Positions 5,203 to 23,951 are shown, counted from the first letter of the stretch. The stretch is 29,450 nucleotides of DNA from Burkholderiales bacterium (GCA_035718125.1 DASTHP010000188.1:1-29450); one strand, 5' to 3'. Numbers and translations: made by a program. The notes: generated by a model from the sequence alone, not told the origin.

Positions 5203-5245
5203 TGTTCGACAGCGTACAGATGGGCCGCGGCCTACAGTGCACTCT
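5203..5245 (+). promoter_or_regulatory. CRP-geometry dyad (TGTTC-GACAGC-GTACA) plus -10-like CACTCT; promoter of the PhoB-like gene
   Basis: Dyad 5203-5218, 21-nt gap, CACTCT 5240-5245; SD AAGGGG before ATG 5270. Confidence 0.62.
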
Positions 5246-5269
5246 GCAGCCTACTAAGGGGTAAGAGAC

Positions 5270-5962
5270 ATGGCGGGCTCGGTATTGGTGGTGGAGAACG
5301 AGGAACCGGTGAGGCAGCTGCTTGCCGGCAATCTGCAGAGCGCGGGTTACCAGGTGCATTGCGCGGGCGATGTCGCCCAGGCCGAAACGATGATGCGTAC
5401 GGTCCGCCCGGACCTGGTGGTGCTCAACTGGATCCTGCCGGGAATTCCCGGGTTGCCGTTCGCCCGGCACCTGCGCGGCGACCGGCGCACCAAGGACATC
5501 TCGATCGTGCTGATCAGCGACCGCGCAGCCGAACAGGACAAGGTCGCCGCGCTGGAGGGCGGGGCGGACGACTACGTCACCAAGCCGTATTCCTGCAGGG
5601 AGCTGCTGGCGCGCATCAAGGCGGTGATGCGCCGGCGCGCGCCCCAGCTCGCCGACAGCGTGATCGAGAGCGGCGGGCTGCAGCTGGATCCGGCGGCGCG
5701 GCGCGTCAGCGCCGGCAATCGCGAGATCGAGCTGTGGACCACCGAGTTCCGGCTGCTGCATTTCTTCATGACGCATCCGGGGCGCATCTTCAGCCGCGCC
5801 ACGCTGCTCGACGAGGTCTGGGGCCACGACGCCTGCGTCGAGGAGCGCACCGTCGACGTCCACATCCGCCGCCTGCGCCAGGGGCTGGCGCCCGCCGGCT
5901 GCGACGTGCCGATCGAGACTGTGCGCGGCCTCGGCTACCGCTTCCGGGCCGAGCCCTGCTGA
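5270..5962 (+). CDS. PhoB-like OmpR-family regulator with a degenerate (pseudo-)receiver domain
   Basis: The winged-helix domain is close to PhoB (TEFRLLHFFMTHP, RTVDVHIRRLR, TVRGLGYRF). The receiver has VVENE and DLVVLNWILPG, i.e. Asn in place of the conserved Asp residues. Confidence 0.9.
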   Translation: MAGSVLVVENEEPVRQLLAGNLQSAGYQVHCAGDVAQAETMMRTVRPDLVVLNWILPGIPGLPFARHLRGDRRTKDISIVLISDRAAEQDKVAALEGGADDYVTKPYSCRELLARIKAVMRRRAPQLADSVIESGGLQLDPAARRVSAGNREIELWTTEFRLLHFFMTHPGRIFSRATLLDEVWGHDACVEERTVDVHIRRLRQGLAPAGCDVPIETVRGLGYRFRAEPC

Positions 5963-7366
5963 TCAGTAGGCGTTCTGCTTTCGCAGCACCACGACCACGG
6001 TCATGAGCACGATCTTGAGGTCGAGCAGCGGCGACCAGTTGCGCAGGTAGGCCAGGTCGTACTCGACGCGCGCGCGCATCTTCTCGAGCGTATCCGTCTC
6101 GCCGCGCAGCCCGTTGACCTGCGCCAGGCCGGTGATGCCGGGCCGCACCTTGTGCCGCACCATGTAGCTGGGGATCAGCTTGCGGTACATCTCGTTGTGG
6201 GCGACGGCGTGCGGCCTGGGTCCGACCACGCTCATGCGGCCCTGCAGGACATTGACGAACTGCGGCAGCTCGTCGAGCGAGTACTTGCGCAGCACGGCGC
6301 CCAGCGGCGTCACGCGCGGGTCGCCGCGCGTGGCCTGCGTCACCACGCCGCCGTCCTCCAGCGCGGACATGGAGCGGAACTTGTAGACGAAGATCTCCCT
6401 GCCGTCCAGCCCGTAGCGGCGCTGCTTGAACAGCACCGGCCCGGGCGAACTGTGCTTCACCGCGAGCGCGATGGCCAGCATCAGCGGCGCGATCAGGACC
6501 AGGATCGCCGAGGCGAGGACGATGTCGATCGCGCGCTTGAGCAGCCCGTCCATCCCGTAGAAGGGCGACTCGCACACCGCGAGCACCGGCAAGCCGCCGA
6601 TGGTCTGCACGCGCGCCTGGATCAGGTCGCACAGGAAGATGTCCGGCGCGAAGTAGATGGAGGCCGTGGTGTCGTGCAGCGCCTCCAGCAGCGCAAGGAT
6701 GCGCGGCTGCGCGGTCATGGGCAGGGTGATGTAGATCATGTCGATGTGCTGCGCACGCACGTATTCCGCCAGCTGCCCGAGGTTGCCGAGGTTGCGCCGC
6801 GCGCCCGCATCGCCGTCCCGCGGCGTGGCGCGGTCATCGAAGTAGCCGGCAAAGCGGATGCCGGTCAATGGACGATCGCGCAGATGCGCGCCCAGATCGC
6901 GGCCCAGCCCGTTCGCGCCGACGATGACCGCGGTTCTCTGCAGGCCTTCGGCAGCCAGCAGTCTGGGCAGCAGCACGGGCACCAGCCGGTGGGCGGCGAA
7001 CAGGGCGAGCGGCGTCGCGACCACCCAGGCGAGGATGGCGCGGGCATCGAAGTTCGCCAGCGTTCCCGAGGCCCAGCCGAGCAGGAGCAGCAGCGCGACC
7101 ATCGCCAGCCATTCGCTGGCGATGCCCAGGGCCAGCTCGAGGGCTTTCTCCGTATCGCGCGCGAGATTGCCCGGGAAGGTTATCGAGAACACGAGCAGCG
7201 CAAGGATCAGATGGGACCCGCCGAAGCGCCCGTCGAACCACAGGGCGCAGGCCACCAGCGAGACGACCGCCACTGCCGGGTCGACCGCGGCCCGCAGCAA
7301 TGCCGCCGGACTGGGCTGACTCGGCAGCAAGCGCGGATGCGTGTGTGGGTACGGGAGCAAGGTCAT
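5963..7366 (-). CDS. wcaJ: Undecaprenyl-phosphate glucose phosphotransferase (WcaJ/EpsB-type priming transferase)
   Basis: Four N-terminal TM segments, IVGAN linker domain, and a Bac_transf domain (KRAIDIV, FKQRRYG, YKFRSM, DPRVT, SLDELPQFVNVLQGRMSVVGPRPH, VRPGITGLAQVNG). Confidence 0.93.
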   Translation of the reverse strand: MTLLPYPHTHPRLLPSQPSPAALLRAAVDPAVAVVSLVACALWFDGRFGGSHLILALLVFSITFPGNLARDTEKALELALGIASEWLAMVALLLLLGWASGTLANFDARAILAWVVATPLALFAAHRLVPVLLPRLLAAEGLQRTAVIVGANGLGRDLGAHLRDRPLTGIRFAGYFDDRATPRDGDAGARRNLGNLGQLAEYVRAQHIDMIYITLPMTAQPRILALLEALHDTTASIYFAPDIFLCDLIQARVQTIGGLPVLAVCESPFYGMDGLLKRAIDIVLASAILVLIAPLMLAIALAVKHSSPGPVLFKQRRYGLDGREIFVYKFRSMSALEDGGVVTQATRGDPRVTPLGAVLRKYSLDELPQFVNVLQGRMSVVGPRPHAVAHNEMYRKLIPSYMVRHKVRPGITGLAQVNGLRGETDTLEKMRARVEYDLAYLRNWSPLLDLKIVLMTVVVVLRKQNAY

Positions 7367-7452: not shown

Positions 7453-7468
7453 TAGCTCCATCGGACTA
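7453..7468. promoter_or_regulatory. Putative EPS-locus operator (TAGCTC-CATC-GGACTA) in the divergent wcaJ/epsA region
   Basis: Imperfect copy of the TAGTCC-N4-GGACYA dyad seen at 8986, 16374 and 22540. Confidence 0.4.
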
Positions 7469-7511
7469 GCGCCGCGACGCGCCATGCCGCCTCGCGGGCC
7501 GACGGCCTTTT

Positions 7512-7554
7512 GGTGCGACAGCGTACATACCGCCGCCGGCGCACAGGCTACGCT
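7512..7554 (+). promoter_or_regulatory. CRP-geometry dyad (GGTGC-GACAGC-GTACA) plus -10 TACGCT; promoter of epsA
   Basis: Dyad 7512-7527, 21-nt gap, TACGCT 7549-7554, which puts the dyad centre at about -41.5. SD AGGA before GTG 7616. Confidence 0.68.
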
Positions 7555-7615: not shown

Positions 7616-8494
7616 GTGCTACTCAGCCAAGCGCAGACGCCGCATCGCCAGAAGCTCCTGCCGCCCGCATTCGCGGATGGGGTCGTGGACTACGCGAGCC
7701 CCGCCGGGGAGACCATCGCCGCCAACGGCAATCCGCAAGCGCTGAGCGACCTCGACGTCGAAATCCTGATGCTCAATCTGGACGCCTCCCTCAGGGTGTA
7801 CGAGCGCGAGCATTTCTTCAGCTGGACACAGGGCGTGCTGCAGAGCCTGATCAAGCATGAAGTCCTGGTCTGCGCCTTGCACAGCGGCGAACCGCCGACG
7901 CTGCGCGCCGACAGCTTCTCGATGGTTGCGGCGGAGCAGGCGCACTTCGGCGAGCTGTTCGTGCGCGACGCGTCGGTCGCGCTGGGCCTGATCAAGAGCT
8001 GGGAAGACCGCGGGTTCCGGCCGCTGATCTGCGATGCCACCGACGCGCCGTTCTCGCGCGGCCTGTTCGCGCAGGAACTCGGGCGCGTGAGCGCCACGCA
8101 GATCCTGGCGCACGGCACGCACGACGCGCAGGGACGCACGCGCGGCTTCTACGCGTTCGTCTGCGCTCCGGGAACGCTCGGCCCGCGGCACGCCTACCTG
8201 GCGCGCCTGGTGACGCCTTCCCTGCACGCCGCCTGGGTGCGCACCGAGGTCAACGGCCGCGCCAAGGGCAACGACCCGGTGCCACGCGAGCAAGCCGGAA
8301 GGATCACCACGCGCGAGGAAGAGATCCTGCGCTGGGTCGCGCTCGGCAAGAGCAACTTCGAGATCGGCGCCATCCTCGGCATCAGCCCTCTGACCGTGAA
8401 GAACCATGTGCAGAAGATTCTGCGCAAGCTGAATGTCGTCAACCGCGCCCAGGCCGTCGGCAAGGCCTCGGAACTGCGCATGCTCAGGAACTGA
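7616..8494 (+). CDS. epsA: LuxR-family transcriptional regulator, EpsA type
   Basis: C-terminal LuxR HTH (TTREEEILRWVALGKSNFEIGAILGISPLTVKNHVQKILRKLNVVNRAQAV); N-terminal REHFFSWTQGVLQSLIKHE region without REC; position next to the priming transferase and epsEFG. Confidence 0.85.
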   Translation: MLLSQAQTPHRQKLLPPAFADGVVDYASPAGETIAANGNPQALSDLDVEILMLNLDASLRVYEREHFFSWTQGVLQSLIKHEVLVCALHSGEPPTLRADSFSMVAAEQAHFGELFVRDASVALGLIKSWEDRGFRPLICDATDAPFSRGLFAQELGRVSATQILAHGTHDAQGRTRGFYAFVCAPGTLGPRHAYLARLVTPSLHAAWVRTEVNGRAKGNDPVPREQAGRITTREEEILRWVALGKSNFEIGAILGISPLTVKNHVQKILRKLNVVNRAQAVGKASELRMLRN

Positions 8495-8517: not shown

Positions 8518-8889
8518 GTGAACCGGATCGCTGCCTGCAGTTTGTCACTGCTGCTCGCCGCGTCGCTGCACGCCCTGCCGGCCCAGGCCGCGACGCTCGG
8601 CGGCGGCATTGCGGGCGGCTCCTGCGGACCCGGCATCGACCTGGTCAAGGCCGGCGCCACGACCGACCTCAAGGCGACCGATTTCAATCCTGTGCTGGCC
8701 TCTGCCAACGGTACGGCCGCGGGGCCGGAGGGCGCAGAGCGCCGCGACCCGCCGGGCGCCGTGGTACAGCAAGCACAATGGATACGGCGTACCGACAATG
8801 CGGTCGCCGAACCCGGCATCGGGGTACTGCTGGTCGCGGGGCTTCTCGGCATGTGGGCCGTGGCCAGGCGACGCAATCTTTCGTCCTGA
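8518..8889 (+). CDS. Small secreted protein with a degenerate PEP-CTERM-like sorting signal (VAEPG-TM-RRR)
   Basis: Signal peptide ending AQA; C-terminus VAEPGIGVLLVAGLLGMWAVARRRNLSS; GTG start. Confidence 0.7.
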   Translation: MNRIAACSLSLLLAASLHALPAQAATLGGGIAGGSCGPGIDLVKAGATTDLKATDFNPVLASANGTAAGPEGAERRDPPGAVVQQAQWIRRTDNAVAEPGIGVLLVAGLLGMWAVARRRNLSS

Positions 8890-8985: not shown

Positions 8986-9039
8986 TAGTCCGACCGGACC
9001 AACGCCGACGTTTCCTGCACAACGTTGCGCGCCTAAGCT
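8986..9039 (+). promoter_or_regulatory. Putative EPS operator (TAGTCC-GACC-GGACCA) plus -10 TAAGCT; promoter of the epsEFG operon
   Basis: Dyad 8986-9001, 32-nt gap, TAAGCT 9034-9039, SD GAGG, ATG 9060. Confidence 0.6.
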
Positions 9040-9059: not shown

Positions 9060-9908
9060 ATGCAGAACATGCCGAAAGTCCGCTTCACGCCACTCCACGC
9101 AGCGCGCCAGCTGCTGTGGATCCTGTTTGCCGCGCTGCTCACCGCGACGCCGGCGCTTTCCCAGACGCGCGATCCCGCCCGCTCGAACGAAGCGCTCGGC
9201 GCGGGCGACGGCGTGCGCGTCACGGTGTTCCAGAATCCGGACCTGACGACCGACGCCCGCATCTCCCCCAGGGGCACCATCGTGTTCCCGCTGGTCGGCG
9301 AGATCGAGCTGGGTGGATTGACGCCGGCGCAGGCGGGCAACCGCATCGCCGAGCAGCTGCGCCGTGGCGGCTTCATGGTCAGGCCGCAGGTCGCCGTCTC
9401 CATCCTCCAAGTGCGCAGCAGGCAGGTGCACGTGCTCGGGCAGCTGCAGCGTCCCGGCAGCTACGTGCTGGAGGACACGGGCGCACGCCTCACCGACATC
9501 CTGACGCTGGCGGGCGGCATCAATGCCACCGGCGCCGACACGGTGACGGTGCTGACGCACCGCGAGGGCAAGGCGCAAACCTGGGCCATCAACCTGCCGG
9601 CGATCTTCCGCGGCGGCAGCGGCGCGAACAACATCCAGATCGAGAACGGCGACACCATCTTCGTCGAGCGTGCGCCGGTGTTCTACATCTACGGCGAGGT
9701 GCAGCGCGCCGGCGCCTATCGGCTGGAGCCGAACATGGTCGTGATGCAGGCGCTCGCCCTTGGCGGCGGGCTCACGCAGCGCGCCACCGAACGCGGCATC
9801 GGCATTCACCGGCGCTTGCCCGACGGCAAGTTCACGAAACACGAGGCGAGGCTCACGGATCCGGTTCAGGCGGAGGACATCGTCTTCGTCCGCGAGAGCC
9901 TGTTCTAG
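9060..9908 (+). CDS. epsE: Polysaccharide export (OPX) protein, EpsE type
   Basis: Poly_export motif LGAGDGVRVTVFQNPDL...GTIVFPLVGEIELGGLT plus two SLBB domains; ends DIVFVRESLF; SPI-type signal; SD GAGG. The ORF-track start at 8433 is over-extended. Confidence 0.9.
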   Translation: MQNMPKVRFTPLHAARQLLWILFAALLTATPALSQTRDPARSNEALGAGDGVRVTVFQNPDLTTDARISPRGTIVFPLVGEIELGGLTPAQAGNRIAEQLRRGGFMVRPQVAVSILQVRSRQVHVLGQLQRPGSYVLEDTGARLTDILTLAGGINATGADTVTVLTHREGKAQTWAINLPAIFRGGSGANNIQIENGDTIFVERAPVFYIYGEVQRAGAYRLEPNMVVMQALALGGGLTQRATERGIGIHRRLPDGKFTKHEARLTDPVQAEDIVFVRESLF

Positions 9909-9920
9909 CCGGCGCCCATC

Positions 9921-11351
9921 GTGAACCTGCAGCAGTTCCTGCGCGCGCTGCGCGCACGCTTCGGAGTGTTCATGCTGGTCCTGGGCGCCACCATGCTCGC
10001 CGCCGCGGTCGCGAGCCTGATGCTGGCCAAGACCTACAAGGCGACGGTGACGCTGCTGATGGACGCCCGCAACGAGCAATCGCTGAGCGGCGCGCAGCGC
10101 CCGCTCATCCTCCCCCTGGAGAGGCTGGCTTTCCTCGAGACGCAGAAGGACATCCTCACCAGCAAGAAGGTGGCGCGCAAGGTGGTGCAGGACCTGAAGC
10201 TGGCCGAGGAGCCGGCGGTGCGCATGATCCTGGGAGACGAGCCGGCCGGCGCGGCGCCGATCGAGGATCGCGCGGTCGACGCGGTGCTGAAGAAGCTGAA
10301 GGTCGAGACCTCGCAGAGCAACGTCATCCGGGTGAGCTACGCGTCGCCCGATGCGGCGGCCGCGGCGCAGATTGCCAATGCCTTCGCCGGCGCCTATATC
10401 GACACGCTGCTGCAGCTGCACGTGGAGCCGGCCCGCGAAGCGACGGCGTGGTTCGAGGAGCAGCTCAAGCGCCTGCGCGCCAGCCTCGAGGAGGCGCAGG
10501 CGCGGCTCACCGAGAACTACCAGCAGCGCGAGATCGTCGCGGCCGACGAGCGCCTGGATGTCGAGAACAGCCGGCTGCAGGCGCTGTCGGACGAAACGGT
10601 CAGGGCGCAGGAGCGCAGCTTCCAGTGGGACAGCCGCGAGCAGCAGGCGCGCAACGCGGTGCGCCGGGGCGCGTCGCCCGAGCGGCTGCCGGACGTGCTC
10701 GACAACTCGTTCATCCAGCGGCTCAAGGGCGACCTGCTGCTCGGCGAGGCGCGGCTGAAGCAGCTGGCGACCCAGTACGGGCAGAATCACCCGCATTACC
10801 AGCGGCAGGTGTCCGAGAACCAGAGCCTGCGCGAGAAGCTCGACGCCGAGATGGCGAAAGTGGTGGCCAGCGTCGGCAGCTCGGCGCGCCAGAGCCGCGA
10901 CCGCGAGGCGGCGCTGGCGCAGGCGACGGAGGCGCAGAGGAAGCGCATGCTCGGCCTCAAGCAGGGCCGCAACGAGCTCACGGTGCTCAGGCGCAACGTG
11001 GAATCGGCGGAACGCGCCTACGACACTGCCTTGCAGCGCTCGGTCGCGAGCCAGGTGGACAGCCGCGTCAACCAGACCAGCGTCACGGTGCTCAGCCCTG
11101 CCGTCGTGCCGGGCAGGCCCGCCAGCCCGCGCATGGACCTGAACCTTGCCTTGGCCGCCGCGGTCGGCGTCATGCTCGGCATCGGCATCGTCCTGCTGCT
11201 GGAGATGACGGACCGGCGCGTGCGTTCGCAGGACGACCTCGAGAACGCCTGGGATGTGCCGTTGCTCGGTGAGCTCAAGCCCTGGAAGCCCGCCCGCCGG
11301 CTCCTCGGCCAGTCGACGAAGGAACCCCGTGCATTGCCCAATCCAGGCTGA
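9921..11351 (+). CDS. epsF: Chain-length determinant / polysaccharide co-polymerase, EpsF type
   Basis: Two TM segments flanking a long periplasmic coiled coil; VLSPAVVP...SPR motif before TM2; no fused kinase. Confidence 0.9.
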   Translation: MNLQQFLRALRARFGVFMLVLGATMLAAAVASLMLAKTYKATVTLLMDARNEQSLSGAQRPLILPLERLAFLETQKDILTSKKVARKVVQDLKLAEEPAVRMILGDEPAGAAPIEDRAVDAVLKKLKVETSQSNVIRVSYASPDAAAAAQIANAFAGAYIDTLLQLHVEPAREATAWFEEQLKRLRASLEEAQARLTENYQQREIVAADERLDVENSRLQALSDETVRAQERSFQWDSREQQARNAVRRGASPERLPDVLDNSFIQRLKGDLLLGEARLKQLATQYGQNHPHYQRQVSENQSLREKLDAEMAKVVASVGSSARQSRDREAALAQATEAQRKRMLGLKQGRNELTVLRRNVESAERAYDTALQRSVASQVDSRVNQTSVTVLSPAVVPGRPASPRMDLNLALAAAVGVMLGIGIVLLLEMTDRRVRSQDDLENAWDVPLLGELKPWKPARRLLGQSTKEPRALPNPG

Positions 11352-11360
11352 AGGCGACCG

Positions 11361-12251
11361 ATGAGCAACTCCGACAACGTCCTGCCCATCGAGGGCTTCG
11401 GCCGCCTGGTGGCGCGCCAGGACGGCAGGCTCGGCAACATCCTGCTCGCGGACGGCAAGATCAGCGCACGCGACATCGAGCCGATACTCGAGATCCAGCG
11501 TGCCCGCGGCATCCGCTTCGGCGAGGCGGCGCTGCGCCTGCGGCTCATCACCCGGGACGATCTGCGCGACGCCATTGCCAGGCAGTACGGGCTGCTGCAC
11601 CTGCTGCCGGGCAGCGGCAGCATCAGCCGCGAGCTGGTCGCCGCCTACGAGCCGTTTCATCCGCGCGCCGAGGAATTGCGCGCCCTGCGCACGCAGCTGC
11701 TGATCCGCTGGGCCAACGCCAGGGTGCGGCACCGCATGCTGGCCATCGTCAGCCCGGGCGCCGGCGAAGGGCGCAGCTATGTCGCCGCCAATCTCGCCGT
11801 CGTGTTCTCCCAGCTCGGCCAGCGCACGATCCTGATCGACGCCGACCTGCGCAACCCGCGGCAGCACCGCATCTTCGACGTTCCCGACCGCGTCGGCCTG
11901 TCGTCGGTCCTTTCGGGCCGCGCCGACCGCAGCGCGGTGGTGCCGCTGCCCCAGTTCGGCACGCTGTCGCTGCTGCCGGCGGGCGCCTGTCCGCCCAACC
12001 CGCAGGAACTGCTGCTGCGGCCGGTGCTGACCACGCTGCTGGACGAGCTGCGCGAGGAGTTCGACGTCGTGCTGTTCGACACGCCGCCGGCCAGCCTTTA
12101 CGCCGACGCGCAGAGCCTGGCGTTCCGCGCCGGCAGCGCCATCGTGCTGGCGCGCAAGGACCACACCGGCATCGCCGCGACCGCCAGCACCATCCGCGTG
12201 CTGAGCGATACCGGTACCAGCGTGGTCGGCACGGTGTTCAACTCCATCTGA
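11361..12251 (+). CDS. epsG: BY-kinase-like protein, EpsG type, with N-terminal MshEN-type motif
   Basis: Walker A variant SPGAGEGRS, Walker A' ILIDADLRNP, Walker B VVLFDTPP. Residues 23-75 hold two 24-aa RLG/RFG...Q motifs. Confidence 0.9.
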   Translation: MSNSDNVLPIEGFGRLVARQDGRLGNILLADGKISARDIEPILEIQRARGIRFGEAALRLRLITRDDLRDAIARQYGLLHLLPGSGSISRELVAAYEPFHPRAEELRALRTQLLIRWANARVRHRMLAIVSPGAGEGRSYVAANLAVVFSQLGQRTILIDADLRNPRQHRIFDVPDRVGLSSVLSGRADRSAVVPLPQFGTLSLLPAGACPPNPQELLLRPVLTTLLDELREEFDVVLFDTPPASLYADAQSLAFRAGSAIVLARKDHTGIAATASTIRVLSDTGTSVVGTVFNSI

Positions 12252-12270
12252 CCGGATCCGGCTGAGCGCA

Positions 12271-13692
12271 ATGGCCGCCGCCCAGGCGCGACAGGCATTC
12301 ACCGGGCTGGCGGGCATCGCCCTGCTTGGCGTGCTCTGGGGCGTGGTCGTCGCGGTGGCGGGCGTGAACGCCCTGATCCTGTGCGTGTCGCTGATCGGCT
12401 GCGCGTTCATCCTGTACGACTTCCGCATCGGCGTCATGTTGCTGATCCTGATGATGCCGCTCGCGACCAGCCCGCTGATGCCGCGCGCCATGCTCGGCAT
12501 CACGGGCCTCAATCCGCTGAACCTGCTGCTCCTCGGCACGCTCGGCGCCTGCCTGCTGCACGGGCTGTCCGACGGCAGCCTGCGCGGCTTCCTGCCGCGG
12601 CCGCTGCTCTGGCTGTATGTCGCGCCGATCCTGGCGGCCGGGGCGCTCGGCGCGCAGCACGTCGGCGAGATCGTGCCCGCGTTCCATGCCTACGGCCTGC
12701 TCGAGTTCCAGGACGTTGCCGGCTACGCGCGCGACCTGGTGGCGAAGCCCCTGTCGATGGTGGTCTTCGCGCTGCTGGTCGGCGCGGCCGTGGCGAAATC
12801 GGCGCAGCCGGAGAAGCTCCTGCTGCCGATGGTGGTCTCGATCTGGGTGGCCGGCCTGAGCGTTCTCGCATTCGTCGCGCAGTCGGGGCTCGGCCTGCAC
12901 CAGCTCGCGAGCAGCGATGCGCGCGAGTTCCTGTCGACGCTGGGCATGCACGCCAACGATCAGGGCCGGCTGTATGCGTTCGCCTACGCCTTGCTGCTGT
13001 TCACCTGGGCCGAAGCGAAGGAGCCCGGATTGCGGGTCGCGCTCCTGGCTACGATGGCGCTGGTCGCCACGGCGCTGTTGCTGACCTTCTCGCGCGGCGC
13101 ATTCGCCGCCTTCATCCTGGTCAACGTGCTGTTCCTGCTCTGGCGCCGCAGCGTGAAGACCCTGGTGCTGTTCGGGCTCGCGGCCTCGCTCGCGCTGTTC
13201 GCGCTTCCCGCCGCGGTCTACGAGCGCCTGTCCAGCGGCGAGGGCGCAGGATTCGACGCCATCAGCGCCGGCCGCATCGACTGGCTCTGGCTGCCGCTGC
13301 TGCCCGAGGTCCTGCGCAGCCCGGTCTACGGCAGCGGCCTGGGCTCGATCCTGTGGTCGGAGCCGATGCGCGTGGGCGGCGGGGCGAACGTGCTGCTCAC
13401 CACGCACCCGCACAACGCCTACCTGCAGGCGCTTCTGGACATGGGTGCGCTCGGCCTGCTCCTGCTGTGCGCCTATTTCGCGCACGTCTGCAGGCAATTC
13501 TGGAAGCTGGGCGCCGATCCTGCCGTGGACCCCGCCCTGCGCGGGTTCTTCCAGGGCGCGGCGGCCGGATTGCTCGGCTTCCTCGCCTCCAGCATCACCG
13601 ACGGCAGCCTGCTGCCGCGTCCCGAGCAGGCTTTGCTGTGGCTGGCGATCGGCATGATGTACGGTCAACGCAGCAAGCGGTTGGTGCCGTGA
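12271..13692 (+). CDS. O-antigen ligase/Wzy-like polymerase (Wzy_C family)
   Basis: About 12 hydrophobic segments; motifs TFSRG, SAGRIDWLW and THPHNAYLQALLDMGALGL. Confidence 0.85.
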   Translation: MAAAQARQAFTGLAGIALLGVLWGVVVAVAGVNALILCVSLIGCAFILYDFRIGVMLLILMMPLATSPLMPRAMLGITGLNPLNLLLLGTLGACLLHGLSDGSLRGFLPRPLLWLYVAPILAAGALGAQHVGEIVPAFHAYGLLEFQDVAGYARDLVAKPLSMVVFALLVGAAVAKSAQPEKLLLPMVVSIWVAGLSVLAFVAQSGLGLHQLASSDAREFLSTLGMHANDQGRLYAFAYALLLFTWAEAKEPGLRVALLATMALVATALLLTFSRGAFAAFILVNVLFLLWRRSVKTLVLFGLAASLALFALPAAVYERLSSGEGAGFDAISAGRIDWLWLPLLPEVLRSPVYGSGLGSILWSEPMRVGGGANVLLTTHPHNAYLQALLDMGALGLLLLCAYFAHVCRQFWKLGADPAVDPALRGFFQGAAAGLLGFLASSITDGSLLPRPEQALLWLAIGMMYGQRSKRLVP

Positions 13693-15212: not shown

Positions 15213-15221
15213 GGCGACGCC

Positions 15222-16373
15222 ATGGCGCGCCTGCTGTTCGTCACCGGCTCGCTGTGCCACGGCGGCGCCGAGCGCCACGCCGTCACGCTCATGAACCGCC
15301 TGGCGGAGCGCCGGCACGAGTGCCACGCGGTCTATGTCAAGAGCGGGGCGGACCAGCTGCCGCGCATCCGCCTGCGCGGCAGCGGCACCGTGCTCTGCCT
15401 CGAGGCGGCGCGCTACCTGGATTGGGCGGCATTGCGGCGCTTTGCCGCCCACCTCGAGCGCATCGAGCCTGCCGTGATCGTGGCGGCGAATCCCTACGCG
15501 CTGATGTATGCCACGCTGGCAATGCGCCTGGCGCACCGGCGCGTGCCCACGATCGTCACTTTCCATTCGACCCGGCTGCTCGGGTGGAAGGAGCAGCTGC
15601 AGATGGCCGCGTACCGCCTGCTGTTCTGGGCCGCGGACTGCACGGTCTTCGTCTGCCAGCGCCAACTGGGGTACTGGCGGCATCGCGGCGTGCTCTCCCG
15701 GCGCAGCGAGGTAATCCACAACGGCGTGGACACGGATGCGTTCAGCAGCGCGCGCGATGCCGGTGCGGGCGGCCGGATGCGCGCCGCGCTCGGCTTTCGC
15801 GACGTCGACTACGTGATCGGCCTGGCAGCGGTGCTGCGCCCGGAGAAGAATCCCCTGCAGCTGGTGGATGCAATCGCGCTGCTGCGCGCCCGTGGGATTC
15901 CCGCCAAGGCGCTGATCGTGGGCGACGGCCCCCTGCGTGCCGCGGTACTGGACCGCGCCTGCGAGCGCATGGTCGCAAGCGACATCGTCATCTCGGGTTT
16001 CCAGCAGGACGTCCGGCCGCACATCGCCGCCTGCGACGTCATGGCCCTGTGCAGCCTCACCGAGGCCTTTTCCCTGGCGGCGCTCGAAGCGATGGCGATG
16101 GGCAAGCCGGTGGTGCACGCCAACGTCGGCGGCGCCGCCGAGATGATCTCGGAAGGCCACAACGGCGCCCTGTTTCCGGTCGGCGATACCGGGGCCTTCG
16201 CCGCCGCCCTCGCGACGCTTGCGGACCGCAGCGCCTGCAGGCGCATGGGCGGGAACGCCCGCCGGGTGGTGCAAGCGCTGTTTTCGGAGGGCGCCATGGT
16301 GGACCGCTACGAACGGCTGCTCCTGGAGCTCGCCGGCAAGCGGCTGCGGCCGAAAGAGGAACTGGCGCACTGA
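15222..16373 (+). CDS. Glycosyltransferase family 4 (GT-B)
   Basis: SLCHGGAERH, IHNGVD, LRPEKN and EAFSLAALEAMAMGKPVV (EX7E). Confidence 0.92.
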   Translation: MARLLFVTGSLCHGGAERHAVTLMNRLAERRHECHAVYVKSGADQLPRIRLRGSGTVLCLEAARYLDWAALRRFAAHLERIEPAVIVAANPYALMYATLAMRLAHRRVPTIVTFHSTRLLGWKEQLQMAAYRLLFWAADCTVFVCQRQLGYWRHRGVLSRRSEVIHNGVDTDAFSSARDAGAGGRMRAALGFRDVDYVIGLAAVLRPEKNPLQLVDAIALLRARGIPAKALIVGDGPLRAAVLDRACERMVASDIVISGFQQDVRPHIAACDVMALCSLTEAFSLAALEAMAMGKPVVHANVGGAAEMISEGHNGALFPVGDTGAFAAALATLADRSACRRMGGNARRVVQALFSEGAMVDRYERLLLELAGKRLRPKEELAH

Positions 16374-16428
16374 GGGTCCATACGGACCATGAGGCGCTGG
16401 CAAGGGCTACACGGCGCTGCCGCAGCAT
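16374..16428 (+). promoter_or_regulatory. Putative EPS operator (GGGTCC-ATAC-GGACCA) plus -10-like CAGCAT; internal, possibly leaderless promoter of the epimerase
   Basis: Perfect GGTCC-N4-GGACC inverted repeat, 33-nt gap, CAGCAT 16423-16428, ATG 6 nt later. Confidence 0.55.
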
Positions 16429-16434
16429 GCGTGC

Positions 16435-17489
<1,055 letters not shown>

Positions 17490-17493
<4 letters not shown>

Positions 17494-18605
17494 CGCCGCC
17501 CGCGGTTCTCGTCCTCGGGCCGCAGCGCGCGGCGGTCAGCGGCGTCAGCACGCACGTGAACACCCTGCTCGCCTCGGATCTCGCGGACGATTTCTCGCTG
17601 ATCCACTTCCAGGTGGGTGGCGAAGGCCTCAAGGAGAGCCGGGCCGGTCAGCTCGCGCGGCAGGCGTCGAGTCCGTTTCGCCTGGCGGTGGCAATCCTCA
17701 GGCGCGGCGCCGCGATCGTGCATATCAACAGTTCGCTCAACGCACGCGCCTACTGGCGCGATCTCGTGCACATGCTCGTCGCCAAGGCCTGCGGGGCGCG
17801 GGTCCTGTTCCAGGTGCACGGCGGCAAGCTGCCGGCGGATTTCTGCGGCAACAACCGGCTGCTGGCGGCCCTGTTGCGTCGCACGCTGCGGCTTCCGGAC
17901 GCCATCGTGGTGCTCGGCAGCATCGAGCTCGACGCATACCAGCGGTTCGTCCACCGGGAGCAGGTGGTGGCGCTGCCCAACGGCATCGACTGCCGGCCCT
18001 ATGCGAGCCTCCTGCGCGAGCGGACCGATCCGGCTGCTGCGCTTCGCCTGGCATACGTGGGCCGGCTGGCGAAAGAGAAGGGGCTCTACGAGCTGCTGAC
18101 GGGCTTGCAGCTCGCCCATGCCGCGGGCGTACGCGCCCGGCTCGTCATTGCCGGCGCCGGCCCGGAAGAGGACAAGCTGCGCCGCTTCGCGGCTGCGGCC
18201 GGCATCGGACACGCGGTCTCGCTTGCCGGCCCGGTGTGCGGCGCGGGCAAGTCGGCGCTGTTCGCGCAGTCCGACCTGTTCGTACTGCCCAGCCACGCTG
18301 AAGGCCTGCCGTACGCGCTGCTGGAAAGCATGGCGGCAGGCGTCCCGGCCATCGTCACCAGGGTCGGCGCCATTCCCGACGTCGTCCTCGACGGCATTCA
18401 CGGCCTGTTCGTTCCCCTGCACGACCCGCAGGCGATCGCGCACGCCATTGCCAGGCTGGACGCGGACCGGGAGCTGCTGGCGCAGATGGGCATCGCCTGC
18501 CGCGCGAGGATCGCCGCGAGCTACAGCGTGCAGCGGCTGGCGGGCGACGTGCGCCGACTGTATGCGGACATGTTCGCCGGCAAGCATGCCGACGCGCTGC
18601 ACTGA
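17490..18605 (+). CDS. Glycosyltransferase family 4 (GT-B)
   Basis: GTG overlapping the upstream TGA; LPNGID, YVGRLAKEKG and EGLPYALLESMAAGVPAI. Confidence 0.92.
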
Positions 18606-18632
18606 CCGCTGCCAACTTCGGGAAGACAAAGC

Positions 18633-20507
18633 ATGTGCGGCATTGCTGGATGGATCGCAGGACCGGAGGGCCCGCTCAACCGGGGCACGCTCGAGTCCAT
18701 GCTGCTCGCCATCGCCCATCGAGGGCCGGACGATTCGGGCATCGCGCAGTTCCGCAGCCATGGCACGGGCCACGACGTGTTTCTCGGGCACCGGCGCCTG
18801 GCGATCATCGACCCCGATGGCGCGCGCCAGCCGATGTGCGACGCCGCCGCCGGCCTGGCAGTGACCTTCAACGGGGAGATCTACAACTTTCGCCAGTTGC
18901 GCGAGGAGCTGAGCGGGCTCGGCTACCGCTTCACGCGCGACTCCGACACCGAAGTGCTGCTGCGCGCCTACCAGCACTGGCAATGCGCCGTGGTGGATCA
19001 CCTGCGCGGCATGTTCGCGTTCGCGATCTGGGACGCCGGCAAGGAGCGCCTGCTGCTGGCGCGCGACCGCTTTGGCGAAAAGCCCCTGTTCCTGCACGAG
19101 AGCGCGAACGGTCTGTGCTTCGCCTCGGAGATCAAGGCGCTGCTGCGCGTTCCCGGCGTGAAGTGCGCCGTGGATCCGGCGGCGGTCTGGGACTACCTCG
19201 CCTATCGCTACGTGCCGGGACCGCAGACCCTGTTCAACGGCATCCGCAAGCTGCAGCCCGGGACGATAGCCGTCTGGGAGCGCGGCAAGCTCACGGAGTC
19301 GCGCTACTGGTCGCCGCCGGATCGCGCCATGGGCGGCTGCGCGAACCCGCCGGCCGACGTCGCCGGCACGTTCCTGTCGCGGCTGGACGAGGCGGTCAGT
19401 CTGCAGATGGTGAGCGACGTGCCCTTCGGCGCGTTCCTGTCGGGCGGCCTGGACTCCTCGATGATCGTTGCGCTCATGAGCCGCCACAATGCGAAGGTCA
19501 ACACCTTCTCCGTCGGCTTCGGCGAAGCGGGCTACAGCGAGCTGGGCTACGCCGCGCAAGTGGCGCGGCACTTCGGCACGACGCACCACGAGATCACGGT
19601 CACCGATCGCGACCTCATCGACCGGCTGCCGGCGCTGGTCGCCTTTCGCGATGCGCCGGTGTCGGAGCCGTCCGACATTCCGATCTACCTGCTGGCCCGC
19701 GAGGCCGCGCGCAGCGTGAAGATGGTGCTGACCGGCGAAGGCAGCGACGAAGTGCTCGGCGGCTATCCGAAGCACGTCGTCGAGCGTTACGCCCGGCCCT
19801 ACCAGTGGCTGCCGGCAAGCTTGCGCCAACGGCTGGTCGAGCCGCTCGCGCAAGCGCTGCCCTACGGCTTTCGCCGCGTCAAGACCGCCGTGGCCAACCT
19901 GGGCATCGCGGATTGGCGCGAGCGTTACGTGCGCTGGTTCGGCGCGCTGAGCGTCGCCGAGCGCGGCCGGCTGGCAGTGCGGCCCATCGAGCGCGCTGCG
20001 CCGGCCGCTGCGGCGCCCTTCGACGCGCATCCGCGCAACAGCTCGCTGCGGCGCATGCTGTACTTCGATCAGGCGAGCTGGCTGCCCGACAACCTGCTCG
20101 AGCGTGCGGACCGCATGACCATGGCGGCCTCGCTCGAGTCGCGCGTGCCGTTCCTGGACCACGAACTGGCCGCGTTCGTTTCGTCCCTCCCGGACCGCTT
20201 CCGCGTACGCGGCCGCACCACCAAGTGGATACTGCGGGCCGCGGCAAGCAACCTGCTGCCCGAGCGCATCCTGACGCGGCCGAAAGTGGGCTTTCGCGTG
20301 CCGGTGGGCGACTGGTTTCGCGGTCCGATGCGCGACTTCCTGGCGGGCCACCTGCAAGGCGCCAGCTCGATGACCCGTGCTTACTACGATGCCCGGGTGC
20401 TGGACGGGATCCTCGCCGGGCACTGGAGCGGCAGGCAGAACAGCGAAAAGCTCCTGTGGGCGCTTCTCAATCTCGAACTGTGGCACCGGCACTATGTCCA
20501 GGCATGA
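18633..20507 (+). CDS. asnB: Asparagine synthase (glutamine-hydrolysing)-like amidotransferase
   Basis: N-terminal MCGIAG (Ntn Cys), HRGPD, FNGEIYN, SDTEV, RDRFGEKPL, LSGGLDSS, LTGEGSDE and SLESRVPFLD. Confidence 0.93.
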   Translation: MCGIAGWIAGPEGPLNRGTLESMLLAIAHRGPDDSGIAQFRSHGTGHDVFLGHRRLAIIDPDGARQPMCDAAAGLAVTFNGEIYNFRQLREELSGLGYRFTRDSDTEVLLRAYQHWQCAVVDHLRGMFAFAIWDAGKERLLLARDRFGEKPLFLHESANGLCFASEIKALLRVPGVKCAVDPAAVWDYLAYRYVPGPQTLFNGIRKLQPGTIAVWERGKLTESRYWSPPDRAMGGCANPPADVAGTFLSRLDEAVSLQMVSDVPFGAFLSGGLDSSMIVALMSRHNAKVNTFSVGFGEAGYSELGYAAQVARHFGTTHHEITVTDRDLIDRLPALVAFRDAPVSEPSDIPIYLLAREAARSVKMVLTGEGSDEVLGGYPKHVVERYARPYQWLPASLRQRLVEPLAQALPYGFRRVKTAVANLGIADWRERYVRWFGALSVAERGRLAVRPIERAAPAAAAPFDAHPRNSSLRRMLYFDQASWLPDNLLERADRMTMAASLESRVPFLDHELAAFVSSLPDRFRVRGRTTKWILRAAASNLLPERILTRPKVGFRVPVGDWFRGPMRDFLAGHLQGASSMTRAYYDARVLDGILAGHWSGRQNSEKLLWALLNLELWHRHYVQA

Positions 20508-20529
20508 ACTCGTGGATACCGGCGGCGGC

Positions 20530-22542
20530 ATGGAGACCGCCGTCGTGCGCACGGGCGCCAGGGAATGGCTCAGGTGGCGCATCAATCGCCTGCGCTGCAT
20601 GTCGCCGGCGGAGATCCCGCACCGCCTGATGCGCGCCGTGTCCGGCGTCGCGGAGAGCGCCGCGCTGCTGTTCGGGCCGCCGCGCGTGCCGGCCCCCGAC
20701 CTCGGCGCGGCTTCCAAGCCATGGATCCGCCGCAGCGCCAGCGTGGAGGTTGCCCCGTACACGGCGGCCGCACAGCGCGTTGCCGCCGGCCTGCTCGACG
20801 TGTTCGCGCTGCGCAACGCCGACCTCGGCTCGCCGCCGCGCTGGAACCAGGACCCGAAATCGAGAATCGTGTCGCCGAGCAGCTTCGGCAAGCATCTCGA
20901 CTATCGCGATGCGCGGCTGGTGGGCGACATCAAGTATCTCTGGGAACCCAACCGGCACCTGCATCTCGTGACCCTGGCGCAAGCCTACGCGCTCAGCGGC
21001 GACACCGCGCACCTGGAGGTGATGCGGCTGCACCTGGAATCCTGGTTCGCCGCCTGCCCCTGCCGCATGGGCCCGAACTGGTCGAGCGCGCTCGAGGCGG
21101 CGATCCGTCTCGTCAACTGGTCGGCCGCCTGGCAACTCGCCGGCGGCGTGCGCTCGCCGCTGTTCGACGGCGAGCGCGGCGAGCGCCTGCGCCGGCAGTG
21201 GCTCGAGTCGGTGTACCAGCATGCGCGCTTCGTGCGCGGCTACTTCTCGCGCCACTCCTCGGCCAACAACCATCTCATCGGCGAGGCGGCCGGGCTGTTC
21301 ATCGCCGCCCTCACCTGGCCGCATTGGCCGGCATCCGCGCGCTGGCTCGCGGCGGCCAAGGGCATCCTCGAGGCCGAGGCGCAGCGCCAGATCGCCCCCG
21401 ACGGCGTGAACCGGGAGCAGGCGATGTCCTACCAGCAGTTCGTGCTCGACTTCCTGCTGATCTGCCTGCTGGCCGGCAGGGAGAACGGCGTATGGTTCTC
21501 CGCCGTCTACGAATCGCGGGTCGAGGCGATGCTCGAGTACCTCGCCTCGGTCATGGACGCAGGCGGCCATGTGCCGATGTTCGGCGATGCCGACGACGGC
21601 CGCGTGGTGGGACTGGCGCCGGCCGCGGACTTCTCGTACTACCGGTCCCTGCTCGCGACGGGGGCCATCGTGTTCGGCAACGCCGAGTTCAAGCGCAAGG
21701 CCGGGCCGCTCGACGACAAGACGCGCTGGCTGTTGGGCGAACAAGCCGACGCGCGGTTCGATGCGCTGGGCGCGCCCGCCGCCCTTTCGCTGCCGCGCCA
21801 GAGCTTCCCCGCCGGCGGCTACCACGTCCTCGGCTGCGACTTCGACACGGACCGCGAGATCCGCCTGGTCGTCGACGCCGGGCCACTGGGGTACAGCGCC
21901 ATCGCCGCCCACGGGCATGCGGACGCCCTGTCGTTCACGCTGTCGGTCGGCGGGCTGGAGTTCCTGGTCGACCCCGGCACCTATGCGTACCACACGCAAG
22001 GCGAGTGGCGCCGGTACTTCCGCGGCACCGGCGCGCACAACACCGTGCGGGTGGATTCGCGCGACCAGTCGGAGTCCGGCGGCAATTTCATGTGGCTGCG
22101 CAAGGCGCGCGCGGGCTGCAGCCTGTGGGAGAGCACGCCCGATCACGATCGGTTCGAAGGCTGGCAGGACGGTTACCGGCGGCTGCAGGACCCGGTCCTG
22201 CATCGCCGGCGGATCGTGCTGCACAAGGCCTCGAGGCGCGTGTTCATCGAGGACTGGCTGCACATGACGGGCCAGCACGACATCGAGCTGCTGTTCCATT
22301 GCAGCGAGCAATGCGTGGCCGAGGCAACCCCGGGCGGCTACGCCCTGCGCCAGGGCGGCAGGACGCTTCACCTCGCCCTGCCGCAGATCGAGGCGGCAAG
22401 CTCCCGCATCCACGTCGGCAGCGTCGCGCCCATCTTCGGCTGGGTGTCGCGGCGGTTCGACGACAAGCAGCCGGCACCGAGCATCGTCTGGCGGTGCCGG
22501 CTCCAGGGCGATGCCGTCCTGCGAACCGAGATCGCCTGCTGA
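20530..22542 (+). CDS. Heparinase II/III-like protein (alternative start ATG 20494)
   Basis: DIKYLWEPNRH, ANNHLIGE, GVNREQ, MFGDADDG, AHGHADALSF, DPGTYAY and GAHNTV motifs. No signal peptide apparent. Confidence 0.85.
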   Translation: METAVVRTGAREWLRWRINRLRCMSPAEIPHRLMRAVSGVAESAALLFGPPRVPAPDLGAASKPWIRRSASVEVAPYTAAAQRVAAGLLDVFALRNADLGSPPRWNQDPKSRIVSPSSFGKHLDYRDARLVGDIKYLWEPNRHLHLVTLAQAYALSGDTAHLEVMRLHLESWFAACPCRMGPNWSSALEAAIRLVNWSAAWQLAGGVRSPLFDGERGERLRRQWLESVYQHARFVRGYFSRHSSANNHLIGEAAGLFIAALTWPHWPASARWLAAAKGILEAEAQRQIAPDGVNREQAMSYQQFVLDFLLICLLAGRENGVWFSAVYESRVEAMLEYLASVMDAGGHVPMFGDADDGRVVGLAPAADFSYYRSLLATGAIVFGNAEFKRKAGPLDDKTRWLLGEQADARFDALGAPAALSLPRQSFPAGGYHVLGCDFDTDREIRLVVDAGPLGYSAIAAHGHADALSFTLSVGGLEFLVDPGTYAYHTQGEWRRYFRGTGAHNTVRVDSRDQSESGGNFMWLRKARAGCSLWESTPDHDRFEGWQDGYRRLQDPVLHRRRIVLHKASRRVFIEDWLHMTGQHDIELLFHCSEQCVAEATPGGYALRQGGRTLHLALPQIEAASSRIHVGSVAPIFGWVSRRFDDKQPAPSIVWRCRLQGDAVLRTEIAC

Positions 22543-22594
22543 GCCGACCGGACTAGTCGCGCTCGTCCGGGGCGTCAAACGCCTCCCCCAAACT
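22540..22594 (+). promoter_or_regulatory. Putative EPS operator (TGAGCC-GACC-GGACTA) plus -10-like CAAACT; internal promoter of the dehydrogenase
   Basis: Strong right half-site GGACTAG and GACC spacer identical to the 8986 copy; 33-nt gap; CAAACT 22589-22594; SD AAGGAG at 22621. Confidence 0.5.
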
Positions 22595-22637
22595 GCAGTT
22601 CTTCCACCGATTGCGCAATCAAGGAGATTCATCGGTC

Positions 22638-23951
22638 ATGCGGATCAGCGTCCTGGGTCTGGGGTACGTCGGCACCGTGACAGCGGGCTGCCTCGCGCAG
22701 CAGGGCCACGATGTGATCGGCGTCGACCCGGAGCCGCGCAAGGTGGACCTGATCAACGCCGGCCGCTCGCCCATCATCGAGAAGGACATCGGCAAGATCA
22801 TCGAGCAGCAGGTGGCGGCGGGCAGGCTCGCCGCCAGCATCGAGGCCATCGACGCGGTGCAGCGCACCGATCTGGTCATGGTGTGCGTGGGCACGCCGAG
22901 CCGCGCCAACGGCGACATCGACCTCAAGTACATACGGCGGGTCGCCGAGCAGATCGGCGAAGCCATGCGCTGCCACCACGGCGCGCCGGCGGTGGTGATC
23001 CGCAGCACGATGCTGCCCGGCACCATGCGCAACGTGGTGATCCCGGCGCTCGAAGCCGCATCGGGGCGCAAGGCGGGCGCGGAGTTCGGCGTGTGCATCA
23101 ACCCGGAGTTCCTGCGCGAAGGCAGCGCGGTGCACGACTACTTCAACCCGCCCAAGACGGTGATCGGCGAACTCAACGAAGCCAGCGGCAAGCTGCTGGC
23201 GGGTCTCTACGCCCACCTCGATAAGCCCCTGGTGCGCACCGACATCGAGACGGCCGAGATGGTGAAGTACGCCGACAACGCCTGGCACGCATTGAAGGTG
23301 GGATTCGCCAACGAGATCGGCAACGTGTGCAAGGGACTTGATGTCGACGGCCACAAAGTGATGGACATCTTCTGCAAGGACACCAAGCTCAACCTGTCGC
23401 CCTACTACCTCAAGCCCGGCTTCGCCTTTGGCGGCTCCTGCCTGCCCAAGGACCTGCGCGCGCTGCTGTACAAGGCGAAGATGCTGGACGTCTCCGTGCC
23501 CATCCTGGCGGCGATCCTGCCCAGCAACGAGCAGCAGATCGAACGTGGGGTACGTGCGGTGGTCGAGCGCGGCAGCAAGAAAGTCGGCGTGCTCGGCTTT
23601 TCCTTCAAGGCCGGCACCGACGACCTGCGCGAGAGCCCGGTGGTCGAGCTGACCGAGCGGCTGCTCGGCAAGGGGTTCGACCTCAGGATCTACGACAGCA
23701 ACGTCAGCATGGCGCGCATCCACGGGGCGAACCGCGACTACATCCTGAACCGCGTACCGCACATCTCGCGCCTGATGGTGTCGAGCATCGGCGAGGTGAT
23801 GAGCCACGCCGACACGATCGTGATCGGCAACGCCGCGCCCGAGTTCGTCGATGTGCCTGGGCGCCTGCGCGGCAGCCAGGGCATCGTCGACCTGGTGCGC
23901 ATCAACGGCGCGCGCAGCGTCGCCGGCGTCTACGAGGGGCTGTGCTGGTGA
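22638..23951 (+). CDS. algD: GDP-mannose 6-dehydrogenase-like (AlgD-type nucleotide-sugar dehydrogenase)
   Basis: MRISVLGLGYVG, CVGTPS, NPEFLREG, KLNLSPYYLKPGFAFGGSCLPKD (catalytic Cys), FKAGTDDLRESP, IHGANRDYI and terminal EGLCW, all collinear with Pseudomonas AlgD as I recall it. Confidence 0.85.
   Translation: MRISVLGLGYVGTVTAGCLAQQGHDVIGVDPEPRKVDLINAGRSPIIEKDIGKIIEQQVAAGRLAASIEAIDAVQRTDLVMVCVGTPSRANGDIDLKYIRRVAEQIGEAMRCHHGAPAVVIRSTMLPGTMRNVVIPALEAASGRKAGAEFGVCINPEFLREGSAVHDYFNPPKTVIGELNEASGKLLAGLYAHLDKPLVRTDIETAEMVKYADNAWHALKVGFANEIGNVCKGLDVDGHKVMDIFCKDTKLNLSPYYLKPGFAFGGSCLPKDLRALLYKAKMLDVSVPILAAILPSNEQQIERGVRAVVERGSKKVGVLGFSFKAGTDDLRESPVVELTERLLGKGFDLRIYDSNVSMARIHGANRDYILNRVPHISRLMVSSIGEVMSHADTIVIGNAAPEFVDVPGRLRGSQGIVDLVRINGARSVAGVYEGLCW

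Follow-up and report, generated by a model that had tools for sequence, protein, structure and literature searches.

Which regulators act on the exopolysaccharide (EPS) genes of a 29,450-nt contig from a Burkholderiales bacterium (GCA_035718125.1 DASTHP010000188.1:1-29450), and at which DNA sites? The contig, analysed here over its whole length and referred to as the window, has a G+C content of 70% and belongs to a 2.59-Mb metagenome-assembled genome (MAG) that is 78.5% complete; the related records used for comparison are Burkholderiales MAGs from sediment, rhizosphere and soil. Genes were called by third-position G+C bias together with Pfam and NCBIfam matches. They include the complete Wzx/Wzy-dependent EPS pathway set (wcaJ, a Polysacc_synt flippase, a Wzy_C protein, a Wzz/GNVR PCP protein and a Poly_export/SLBB OPX exporter), and the locus is a Wzx/Wzy exopolysaccharide cluster of the EpsA family (TIGR03020). 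Two inverted repeats recur in its gaps, dyad 1 and dyad 2, the latter being the core of a longer element that we call the EpsA box. Both are imperfect, and a listing of perfect recurrent dyads in the window returned nothing useful. As an earlier reading of the window had proposed, the two motifs partition cleanly: dyad 1 precedes cell-wall and regulator genes, the box precedes EPS genes, and both occur together only in the gap between wcaJ and epsA. Direct observation covers the motifs themselves, the constancy of their geometry, how far they are conserved and the phyletic pattern of their associations.

The reading that we favour, with moderate confidence, has three layers: a Crp-like factor at dyad 1, the regulator EpsA at the box, and cyclic di-GMP (c-di-GMP) at the protein EpsG. 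In the first layer, dyad 1 would replace the -35 element, and the lytic transglycosylase, serine hydrolase, PhoB-like regulator and epsA promoters would be activated in class II fashion by a Crp/Fnr (NtcA-like) family member whose gene lies in another part of the genome. In the second, an EpsA dimer would occupy the box 5' of the wcaJ, epsE, epimerase and sugar-dehydrogenase genes, one or two helical turns upstream of the -35 position, and would activate four units. In the third, EpsG, the P-loop partner of the chain-length protein EpsF, would sense c-di-GMP through its MshEN-type N-terminus. The pairing of proteins with sites, the sign of regulation and the binding of c-di-GMP are what we infer from sequence patterns in this scheme.

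The four dyad 1 sites of the window (16-mers starting at 1273, 2034, 5203 and 7512) have 10 invariant positions in common. They are given here with a weaker site facing csbD; G017 and G019 are genomes of relatives.

1273-1288, plus strand: dyad 1 site before the SLT lytic transglycosylase gene; -10-like CAAGCT at 1310-1315; kept in G017
2034-2049, plus strand: dyad 1 site before the serine hydrolase gene; -10-like CAAGCT at 2071-2076; kept in G019 and G017
5203-5218, plus strand: dyad 1 site before the PhoB-like response regulator gene; -10-like CACTCT at 5240-5245
7512-7527, plus strand: dyad 1 site before epsA; -10-like TACGCT at 7549-7554
4012-4027, minus strand: weak dyad-1-like site directed toward csbD; GAGCAT 21 nt downstream

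Sites pooled from relatives yield the palindrome TGTKCG-N4-CGWACA (TGT-N10-ACA), usually followed directly by GA. Of the 46 distinct dyad 1 sites, 30 are followed at a distance of exactly 21 nt by a -10-like hexamer, nAnnnT, whose second base is A and whose sixth is T; in 7 more the distance is 22 nt, and the remaining offsets give 0-6. Because of the exact 21-nt spacing, the centre of dyad 1 falls at -41.5, and the combination of a palindrome with CRP geometry near -41.5, a -10 element and no -35 element is that of class II Crp/Fnr promoters. This arrangement is the signature of an activator-type site in a promoter devoid of a -35 element, the start position being deduced from the hexamer. 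The invariant positions and the spacing thus uphold the claim that dyad 1 is a real site. In many genes of both regulons, the -10 hexamer is located only 6-15 nt before the start codon (1310-1322, 2071-2084 and 16423-16435 in the window, and likewise in family loci), which predicts that the transcripts of such genes would be leaderless or nearly so.

Dyad 1 is kept at the same genes in syntenic loci, with a recurrence of four out of four window sites in G017 and three out of four in G019, while a third genome, G007, keeps two, before the regulator gene and epsA. More broadly, the site precedes the PhoB-like regulator gene in all nine genus genomes that carry the locus, and it is found 5' of epsA orthologues (65-88% identity) in eight genus genomes, sometimes as two or three tandem copies. 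In G017, the epsA orthologue is split into two overlapping frames (G017:C4:246627-247497; loci L009 and L032), owing to a frameshift or an assembly error. The conservation of both motifs in syntenic loci, proposed as a check in the original prediction, was found in G017 and G019, and partly in G007.

That prediction had also cast dyad 1 as the site of a global, stress-triggered regulator, and this the data do not support. Allowing one mismatch at most, the derived pattern is matched nowhere in the 2.59-Mb assembly but on this contig; a palindrome scan of the same genome, again with at most one mismatch, gave 19 matches against about 14 expected, and therefore no more convincing palindrome sites outside the window. 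Across the genus, the pattern search returned 36 matches in the ten genomes with an EpsA homologue and 6 in the fifteen without, for a chance expectation of about 0.3 per genome. Outside the EPS locus, dyad 1 of the relatives precedes four genes for ice-binding-like lipoproteins, and genes for an SLT transglycosylase, a type II secretion pseudopilin, a HisKA_3 kinase, a DUF6600/FecR protein and a Crp/Fnr-family protein. Judged from these matches, the dyad 1 regulon is a genus-level accessory set of surface and secreted proteins, neither global nor genome-wide. Secreted Ice_binding-like (PF11999) lipoproteins, some with DUF7933, are the commonest non-EPS targets in relatives (L110, L113, L115 and L120). 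As for stress, the proposed trigger depended on the csbD site, which has three mismatches to the derived pattern, a level at which the window count is at chance (9 versus 6.55 expected), so this part of the proposal is not supported. The csbD site does keep the 21-nt spacing and is identical in G019 and G017; that it is a genuine dyad 1 site is plausible but unproven.

Which protein reads dyad 1? Genome comparisons suggest, as its most likely binder, a member of an NtcA-like Crp/Fnr clade that is specific to the lineage and has expanded within it. The clade reaches up to 12 paralogues per 4-Mb genome (G017, G019 and others), its closest solved structures being NtcA proteins, although at a weak E value of 7.7e-5; the paralogues are often clustered, near HisKA_3 kinases. 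The number of dyad 1 sites per genome tracks the Crp-like copy number (rho 0.82), and 5 of the 23 dyads outside EPS loci are located within 2.5 kb of a Crp-like paralogue, versus 0.13-0.41 expected. Moreover, orthologous Crp-like genes of G017 and G019 carry dyad 1 105-116 nt upstream in both genomes. Finally, genome G022 possesses paralogues of EpsA and of the regulator, and has neither a member of the Crp-like clade nor dyads.

Several observations weigh against this assignment. No clear orthologue of the auto-regulated Crp-like gene was found in the 78.5%-complete assembly, the best candidates being 42% identical, or 71% over a truncated frame; contig C278 of the same assembly, where two Crp-like frames occur, one of them seemingly truncated, lacks a dyad in their vicinity and is uninformative. 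Furthermore, EpsA, the regulator and a high Crp-like copy number are by their presence markers of one and the same sub-clade of the genus, so the correlations are confounded, and among EpsA-negative genomes rho is only 0.43 and not significant.

The best-surviving alternative, which we nevertheless consider unlikely, is that a regulator from within the locus, either the non-phosphorylatable PhoB-like regulator or EpsA, has dyad 1 as its operator and would regulate its own gene together with the cell-wall neighbours without any Crp-like protein. Indeed, the presence of dyad 1 before both the regulator gene and epsA in every genus genome with the locus is equally expected from autoregulation, 36 of the 42 genus matches fall in genomes that hold the locus, LuxR-type activators likewise work from about -42, and the loss of the regulator's phospho-acceptor coincides exactly with the dyad-1 clade. 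However, 64 distant loci without dyad 1 still show at least 90% conservation of the EpsA helix-turn-helix (HTH) and of the recognition helix of the regulator, which disfavours both proteins as binders of dyad 1. OmpR/PhoB proteins also normally read direct repeats rather than palindromes. In addition, the loci of EpsA and regulator paralogues in dyad-positive genomes show no dyad, and dyads adjoin Crp-like genes where the EpsA and regulator genes are absent, as in G009, which has an orthologue of neither and still carries a dyad beside a Crp-like gene.

The phospho-acceptor Asp of the PhoB-like regulator is replaced by Asn or Ser in nine of the ten dyad-1 loci and is retained in all 49 other family loci compared (L019-L098), whereas its DNA-reading helix is at least 90% conserved throughout the family loci. 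The loss of the Asp together with the gain of dyad 1 fits a move of the regulator's control from phosphorylation to transcription.

The second motif had been described as GTCC-N4-GGAC. In this form, it has three perfect copies in the window, of which one, at 5402, falls within the response-regulator coding sequence, and with up to one mismatch it matches 18 times against 16.5 expected, while only two of the four gap copies match it. It was thus dropped as a motif definition, being at chance count, and survives solely as the centre of a longer box. This box is the 16-bp palindrome TAGTCC-N4-GGACTA, to which all four gap elements can be aligned. The elements first noticed are therefore real and conserved, and it is their written form that was too short.

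7453-7468: EpsA-type box TAGCTC-CATC-GGACTA, 61 nt from the minus-strand -10-like TAGTCT (7407-7402) of wcaJ
8986-9001: EpsA-type box TAGTCC-GACC-GGACCA, 48 nt before the -10-like TAAGCT (9034-9039), epsE
16374-16389: EpsA-type box GGGTCC-ATAC-GGACCA, 49 nt before CAGCAT (16423-16428), epimerase gene
22540-22555: EpsA-type box TGAGCC-GACC-GGACTA, 49 nt before CAAACT (22589-22594), dehydrogenase gene

The offsets of 48, 49, 49 and 61 nt differ by one helical turn, and the boxes therefore lie on the same face of the DNA. All are conserved in the syntenic loci of G019 and G017, and two also in G007. Where three EPS sub-operons had been proposed, there are four box-controlled units once wcaJ is counted.

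The geometry of the box emerges from a comparison of 80 EpsA-family loci, among which the synteny of regulator, wcaJ, epsA, epsF, epsG and Wzy-like genes is almost universal. In 44 of the 64 distant loci, GGACTAG / GTAGCCTCAnCGGACTAGCG is found 5' of epsA; from the start of GTAGCCTCAnCGGACTAGCG it is 60-63 nt to an extended -10 element (GACTATAgT), and a further 8-12 nt separate this element from the ATG. On the 3' side of epsA, these loci display, in order, a rho-independent terminator, TAGTCCGTACGG, CGTAAYA, a -10 hexamer and the ATG of a PEP-CTERM-like protein of about 100 residues. TAGTCC is positioned exactly 60 nt before the -10 hexamer (TAGCAT, TAGGAT or TACGAT) of the gene that follows epsA in 40 out of 42 loci, and CGTAAYA exactly at +44 from the box start, again in 40 out of 42. 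The intervening sequence varies, and therefore it is position, and not the sequence between the elements, that is constrained. CGTAAYA spans +44 to +50 from the box start, or roughly -28 to -22 from the inferred start, and its counterpart in the window lies at about 9021-9027 (CACAACG). Readings of the box and CGTAAYA as sites of extracytoplasmic-function (ECF) sigma factors or sigma-54, or as a PhoB box, were tried by eye and rejected, the spacings being unsuited.

The box is not restricted to Burkholderiales. A locus of 54% G+C from another family of the class has a pair of boxes (0 and 1 mismatch) in the stretch that separates epsA from the PEP-CTERM gene, with CGTAACA at +44, and a locus of 38% G+C from a further family carries a box 5' of epsA; no OmpR-type regulator is encoded within 14-16 kb of EpsA in either of them. 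Next to EpsA homologues of 32-37% identity, in G030 and G037, no box was found within 1.5 kb.

EpsA scores 191.5 bits against TIGR03020 (cut-off 170), with a GerE domain at residues 231-281. Its N-terminal domain (7616-8290) has no Pfam match, and the autoinducer-binding model gives none at E <= 0.001. By contrast with these profile searches, the AlphaFold model of EpsA (predicted local distance difference test score, pLDDT, 81) matches QscR, CviR, RhlR, SdiA and TraR over both domains in Foldseek, with E values down to 2e-11, and aligns with the CepR2 ligand-binding domain at a TM score of 0.68. According to this model, EpsA is a LuxR-type protein whose ligand-binding domain has the fold of acyl-homoserine lactone (AHL) receptors, which implies a small-molecule input. 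QscR, CviR, RhlR and TraR bind DNA palindromes as dimers. Since the box accompanies EpsA-family genes across families, including loci without a response regulator, EpsA is the most likely binder of TAGTCC-N4-GGACTA. A published operator or regulon of EpsA was not found in the literature.

Less comfortable for this view, two of the four window boxes have three mismatches to the palindrome, the raw number of matches to it in the window is only marginally above chance (6 versus 2.66 expected), and the third conserved element, CGTAAYA, is explained by no known promoter element. It appears quite improbable, all the same, that the box is read by the conserved PhoB-like regulator or another factor, with EpsA acting elsewhere or indirectly. 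In Burkholderiales, the regulator gene is linked to epsA in nearly all loci and the protein is the better conserved of the two (71-95% identity, versus about 55% for EpsA); box promoters also hold the second fixed element, CGTAAYA, whose reverse complement we take to resemble a PhoB half-site. Yet the boxes with 0-1 mismatch in the two other families stand beside EpsA genes with no OmpR-type gene in the surrounding 14-16 kb, a 6-4-6 palindrome suits an HTH dimer, and the EpsA recognition helix is invariant wherever the box is found, in Burkholderiales and other families alike. It is very improbable that the dyad-2 elements are chance matches or intercistronic RNA features (hairpins or processing sites) in one long operon read from the epsA promoter. 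In favour of that reading, GTCC-N4-GGAC is unenriched in the window, the genes from epsA onward share a strand and are separated by short gaps, two of these gaps (before epsE and before the dehydrogenase gene) are spanned by RNA-library contigs of relatives, which is weak evidence, and an inverted repeat CCGGAC..GTCCGG occupies the latter gap. Against it, the box-to--10 offset is fixed despite the variable intervening sequence, a rho-independent terminator separates epsA from the box in distant loci, the sequence is kept where the pairing is not (G007 retains CCGGACTAG and has lost the second inverted-repeat arm), and an Rfam scan of the window and five loci gave no family that covers the conserved elements. 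The RNA-library contigs, which were assembled from four sediment runs and match much of the locus at 90-99% identity, derive from relatives; they are silent on starts, strand and operons, and were not used as evidence.

The two motifs can now be placed in order. Where epsA is preceded by a box of its own, as in distant loci, it would be auto-activated. In the clade of the window, the epsA promoter carries dyad 1 at -41.5, and the box of the wcaJ/epsA gap is canonically phased only for wcaJ; the order from Crp-like factor to EpsA to eps genes is therefore coherent for this lineage. The proposed cascade, with its c-di-GMP input at EpsG, is partly supported by comparative evidence, without the link to stress and the global status once given to its first factor. 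A more ambitious formulation, which we put forward tentatively as possible rather than probable, is that the EpsA-box promoter may be an undescribed, rigid three-part activation module (a 16-bp palindrome, CGTAAYA at +44 and a -10 at +60, with the ATG 10-15 nt further on, hence nearly leaderless) common to EpsA-family loci of several proteobacterial families, and that in one soil genus epsA and the regulator gene may have been rewired to the newly expanded Crp-like clade as the regulator lost its phospho-acceptor Asp, its control shifting from phosphorylation to transcription.

The third layer concerns EpsG. Its residues 23-46 and 52-75, joined by the five-residue linker RARGI, form an MshEN double motif, RLGxx(h)(h)xxG(h)(h)xxxxLxxxLxxQ, of 24 residues each, with Lys at position 11 of motif 1 and Arg at position 10 of motif 2. 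The protein scores 41.2 bits against NCBIfam NF053729 (cut-off 38) and weakly matches the c-di-GMP-activated transferase NfrB. All 46 EpsG homologues examined have the key Gly, Arg and Gln residues unchanged, and the motif, which was correctly recognised from the window, is therefore a trait of the EpsG family and not special to this window. EpsG also has a P-loop ATPase core and scores 342.4 bits against the EpsG tyrosine-kinase family TIGR03029 (cut-off 313.8). Judging from the motif, the assembly or export of the polysaccharide is probably tuned by c-di-GMP via EpsG. A feature that sits poorly with the model is the lack of the C-terminal tyrosine cluster that serves autophosphorylation and is typical of bacterial tyrosine kinases (BY-kinases): EpsG has a single Tyr in its last 50 residues and ends in ...TVFNSI. 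EpsG may be a regulatory ATPase, and not an autokinase. Like the MshEN receptor domain (PMC5013675) and NfrB, EpsG has two 24-residue motifs and a five-residue linker, but here they are fused to a P-loop protein resembling BY-kinases. Wang et al. (2016, PMC5013675), who described MshEN, do not list such a fusion in their main text, and no paper combining MshEN with 'BY-kinase' was found in the literature searched.

The gene content of the window is as follows.

First gene of the window, minus strand: aldolase (gene calling and Pfam/NCBIfam)
1322-2014: SLT lytic transglycosylase, with a dyad 1 site upstream
2084-3199: secreted serine-hydrolase-like protein, with a dyad 1 site upstream
Between the serine hydrolase gene and csbD in gene order, minus strand: small secreted protein
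3682-3884, minus strand: csbD
Between csbD and the PhoB-like response regulator gene: hybrid REC-HisKA_3 kinase
5270-5962, plus strand: OmpR/PhoB-type response regulator with Asn at the phospho-acceptor Asp position
5963-7366, minus strand: wcaJ-type undecaprenyl-phosphate glucose phosphotransferase (TIGR03023)
7616-8494, plus strand: epsA, LuxR/GerE-type regulator (TIGR03020) with an N-terminal domain of predicted AHL-receptor fold
8518-8889, plus strand: small secreted protein of 123 residues with a signal peptide and a PEP-CTERM-like C-terminal anchor (by eye)
9061-16373, plus strand: unit 1, comprising epsE (Wza-like), epsF (PCP), epsG, and Wzy_C polymerase-like, flippase and GT4 genes
11361-12251, plus strand: epsG, with the MshEN-type double motif (residues 23-75) at 11427-11585
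16435-22542, plus strand: unit 2, encoding a TviC-like epimerase, a GT4 protein, an AsnB-like amidotransferase and a heparinase II/III-like protein
22611-23951, plus strand: NDP-sugar dehydrogenase, heading unit 3
22611 to about 28649: unit 3, the dehydrogenase gene followed by further modification genes

The true start of epsE is the ATG at 9061. The small protein encoded after epsA matches no curated model. It belongs to a conserved family of secreted proteins of about 100-123 residues with the PEP-CTERM-like tail ..P.P..W.LLLAGLA..GWVAHRRL (for example, L071:6435-6758 and L064:7016-7327), and in most family loci its gene is the first behind the EpsA-box promoter. A search for exosortase (PF09721) gave no match, either in the window or in the rest of the 78.5%-complete assembly.

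How does this arrangement compare with known systems? In Escherichia coli, RcsA/RcsB provides the example of a LuxR-type regulator without a receiver domain that activates a Wza/Wzc/WcaJ-type locus, that of colanic acid, from a box upstream of the first export gene. The window shares with it the LuxR-type regulator devoid of a receiver, the capsule-type locus and the box before the first export gene, but the sequence and spacing of the box are different, EpsA has a domain of predicted AHL-receptor fold, and the partner is of the OmpR/PhoB and not of the NarL type. Class II activation by NtcA and CRP operates from a site centred at -41.5 in promoters without a -35 element, the NtcA site being GTA-N8-TAC. 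Dyad 1 resembles this configuration in its TGT-N10-ACA form, in the 21-nt distance to a -10 with A2 and T6 retained, and in the lack of a -35; the Crp-like clade departs from NtcA in its weak homology, in the inner half-site bases (TGTKCG) and in its many paralogues per genome. Bcam1349/BerA of Burkholderia cenocepacia and Clp of Xanthomonas are CRP/FNR-type c-di-GMP effectors that control EPS clusters, in a betaproteobacterium and a gammaproteobacterium, and the proposed placement of a Crp/Fnr-family protein above an EPS cluster is akin to theirs by family and role. The locus itself is close to the XrtB/PEP-CTERM EPS loci with EpsA (TIGR03020), namely the Methylobacillus-type eps cluster and the Curvibacter eps operon (PMC13751637), with which it shares an EpsA scoring above the cut-off, the neighbours wcaJ, epsE, epsF and epsG, and a small PEP-CTERM-like gene adjoining epsA. 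By contrast with these loci, no exosortase was found in the sequence searched, and the PhoB-like regulator and the dyad-1 promoter are additions.

Betaproteobacteria living in soil, in sediment or with a host commonly carry EpsA-family loci, through which they flocculate, form biofilms and colonise their hosts. The most useful outcome of this analysis is a testable EpsA box with fixed promoter geometry: a defined 16-bp sequence at a set distance from its promoter is a handle for reporter assays, for electrophoretic mobility shift assays and for the prediction of regulons in metagenomes. The predicted dyad-1 regulon would tie the regulators of EPS synthesis to ice-binding-like lipoproteins, cell-wall hydrolases and a type II secretion pseudopilin, under an uncharacterised Crp-like clade. 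Finally, the MshEN motif of EpsG predicts an input of c-di-GMP at the chain-length and export step of the Wzx/Wzy pathway and, if confirmed, would constitute a new class of receptor at that step.

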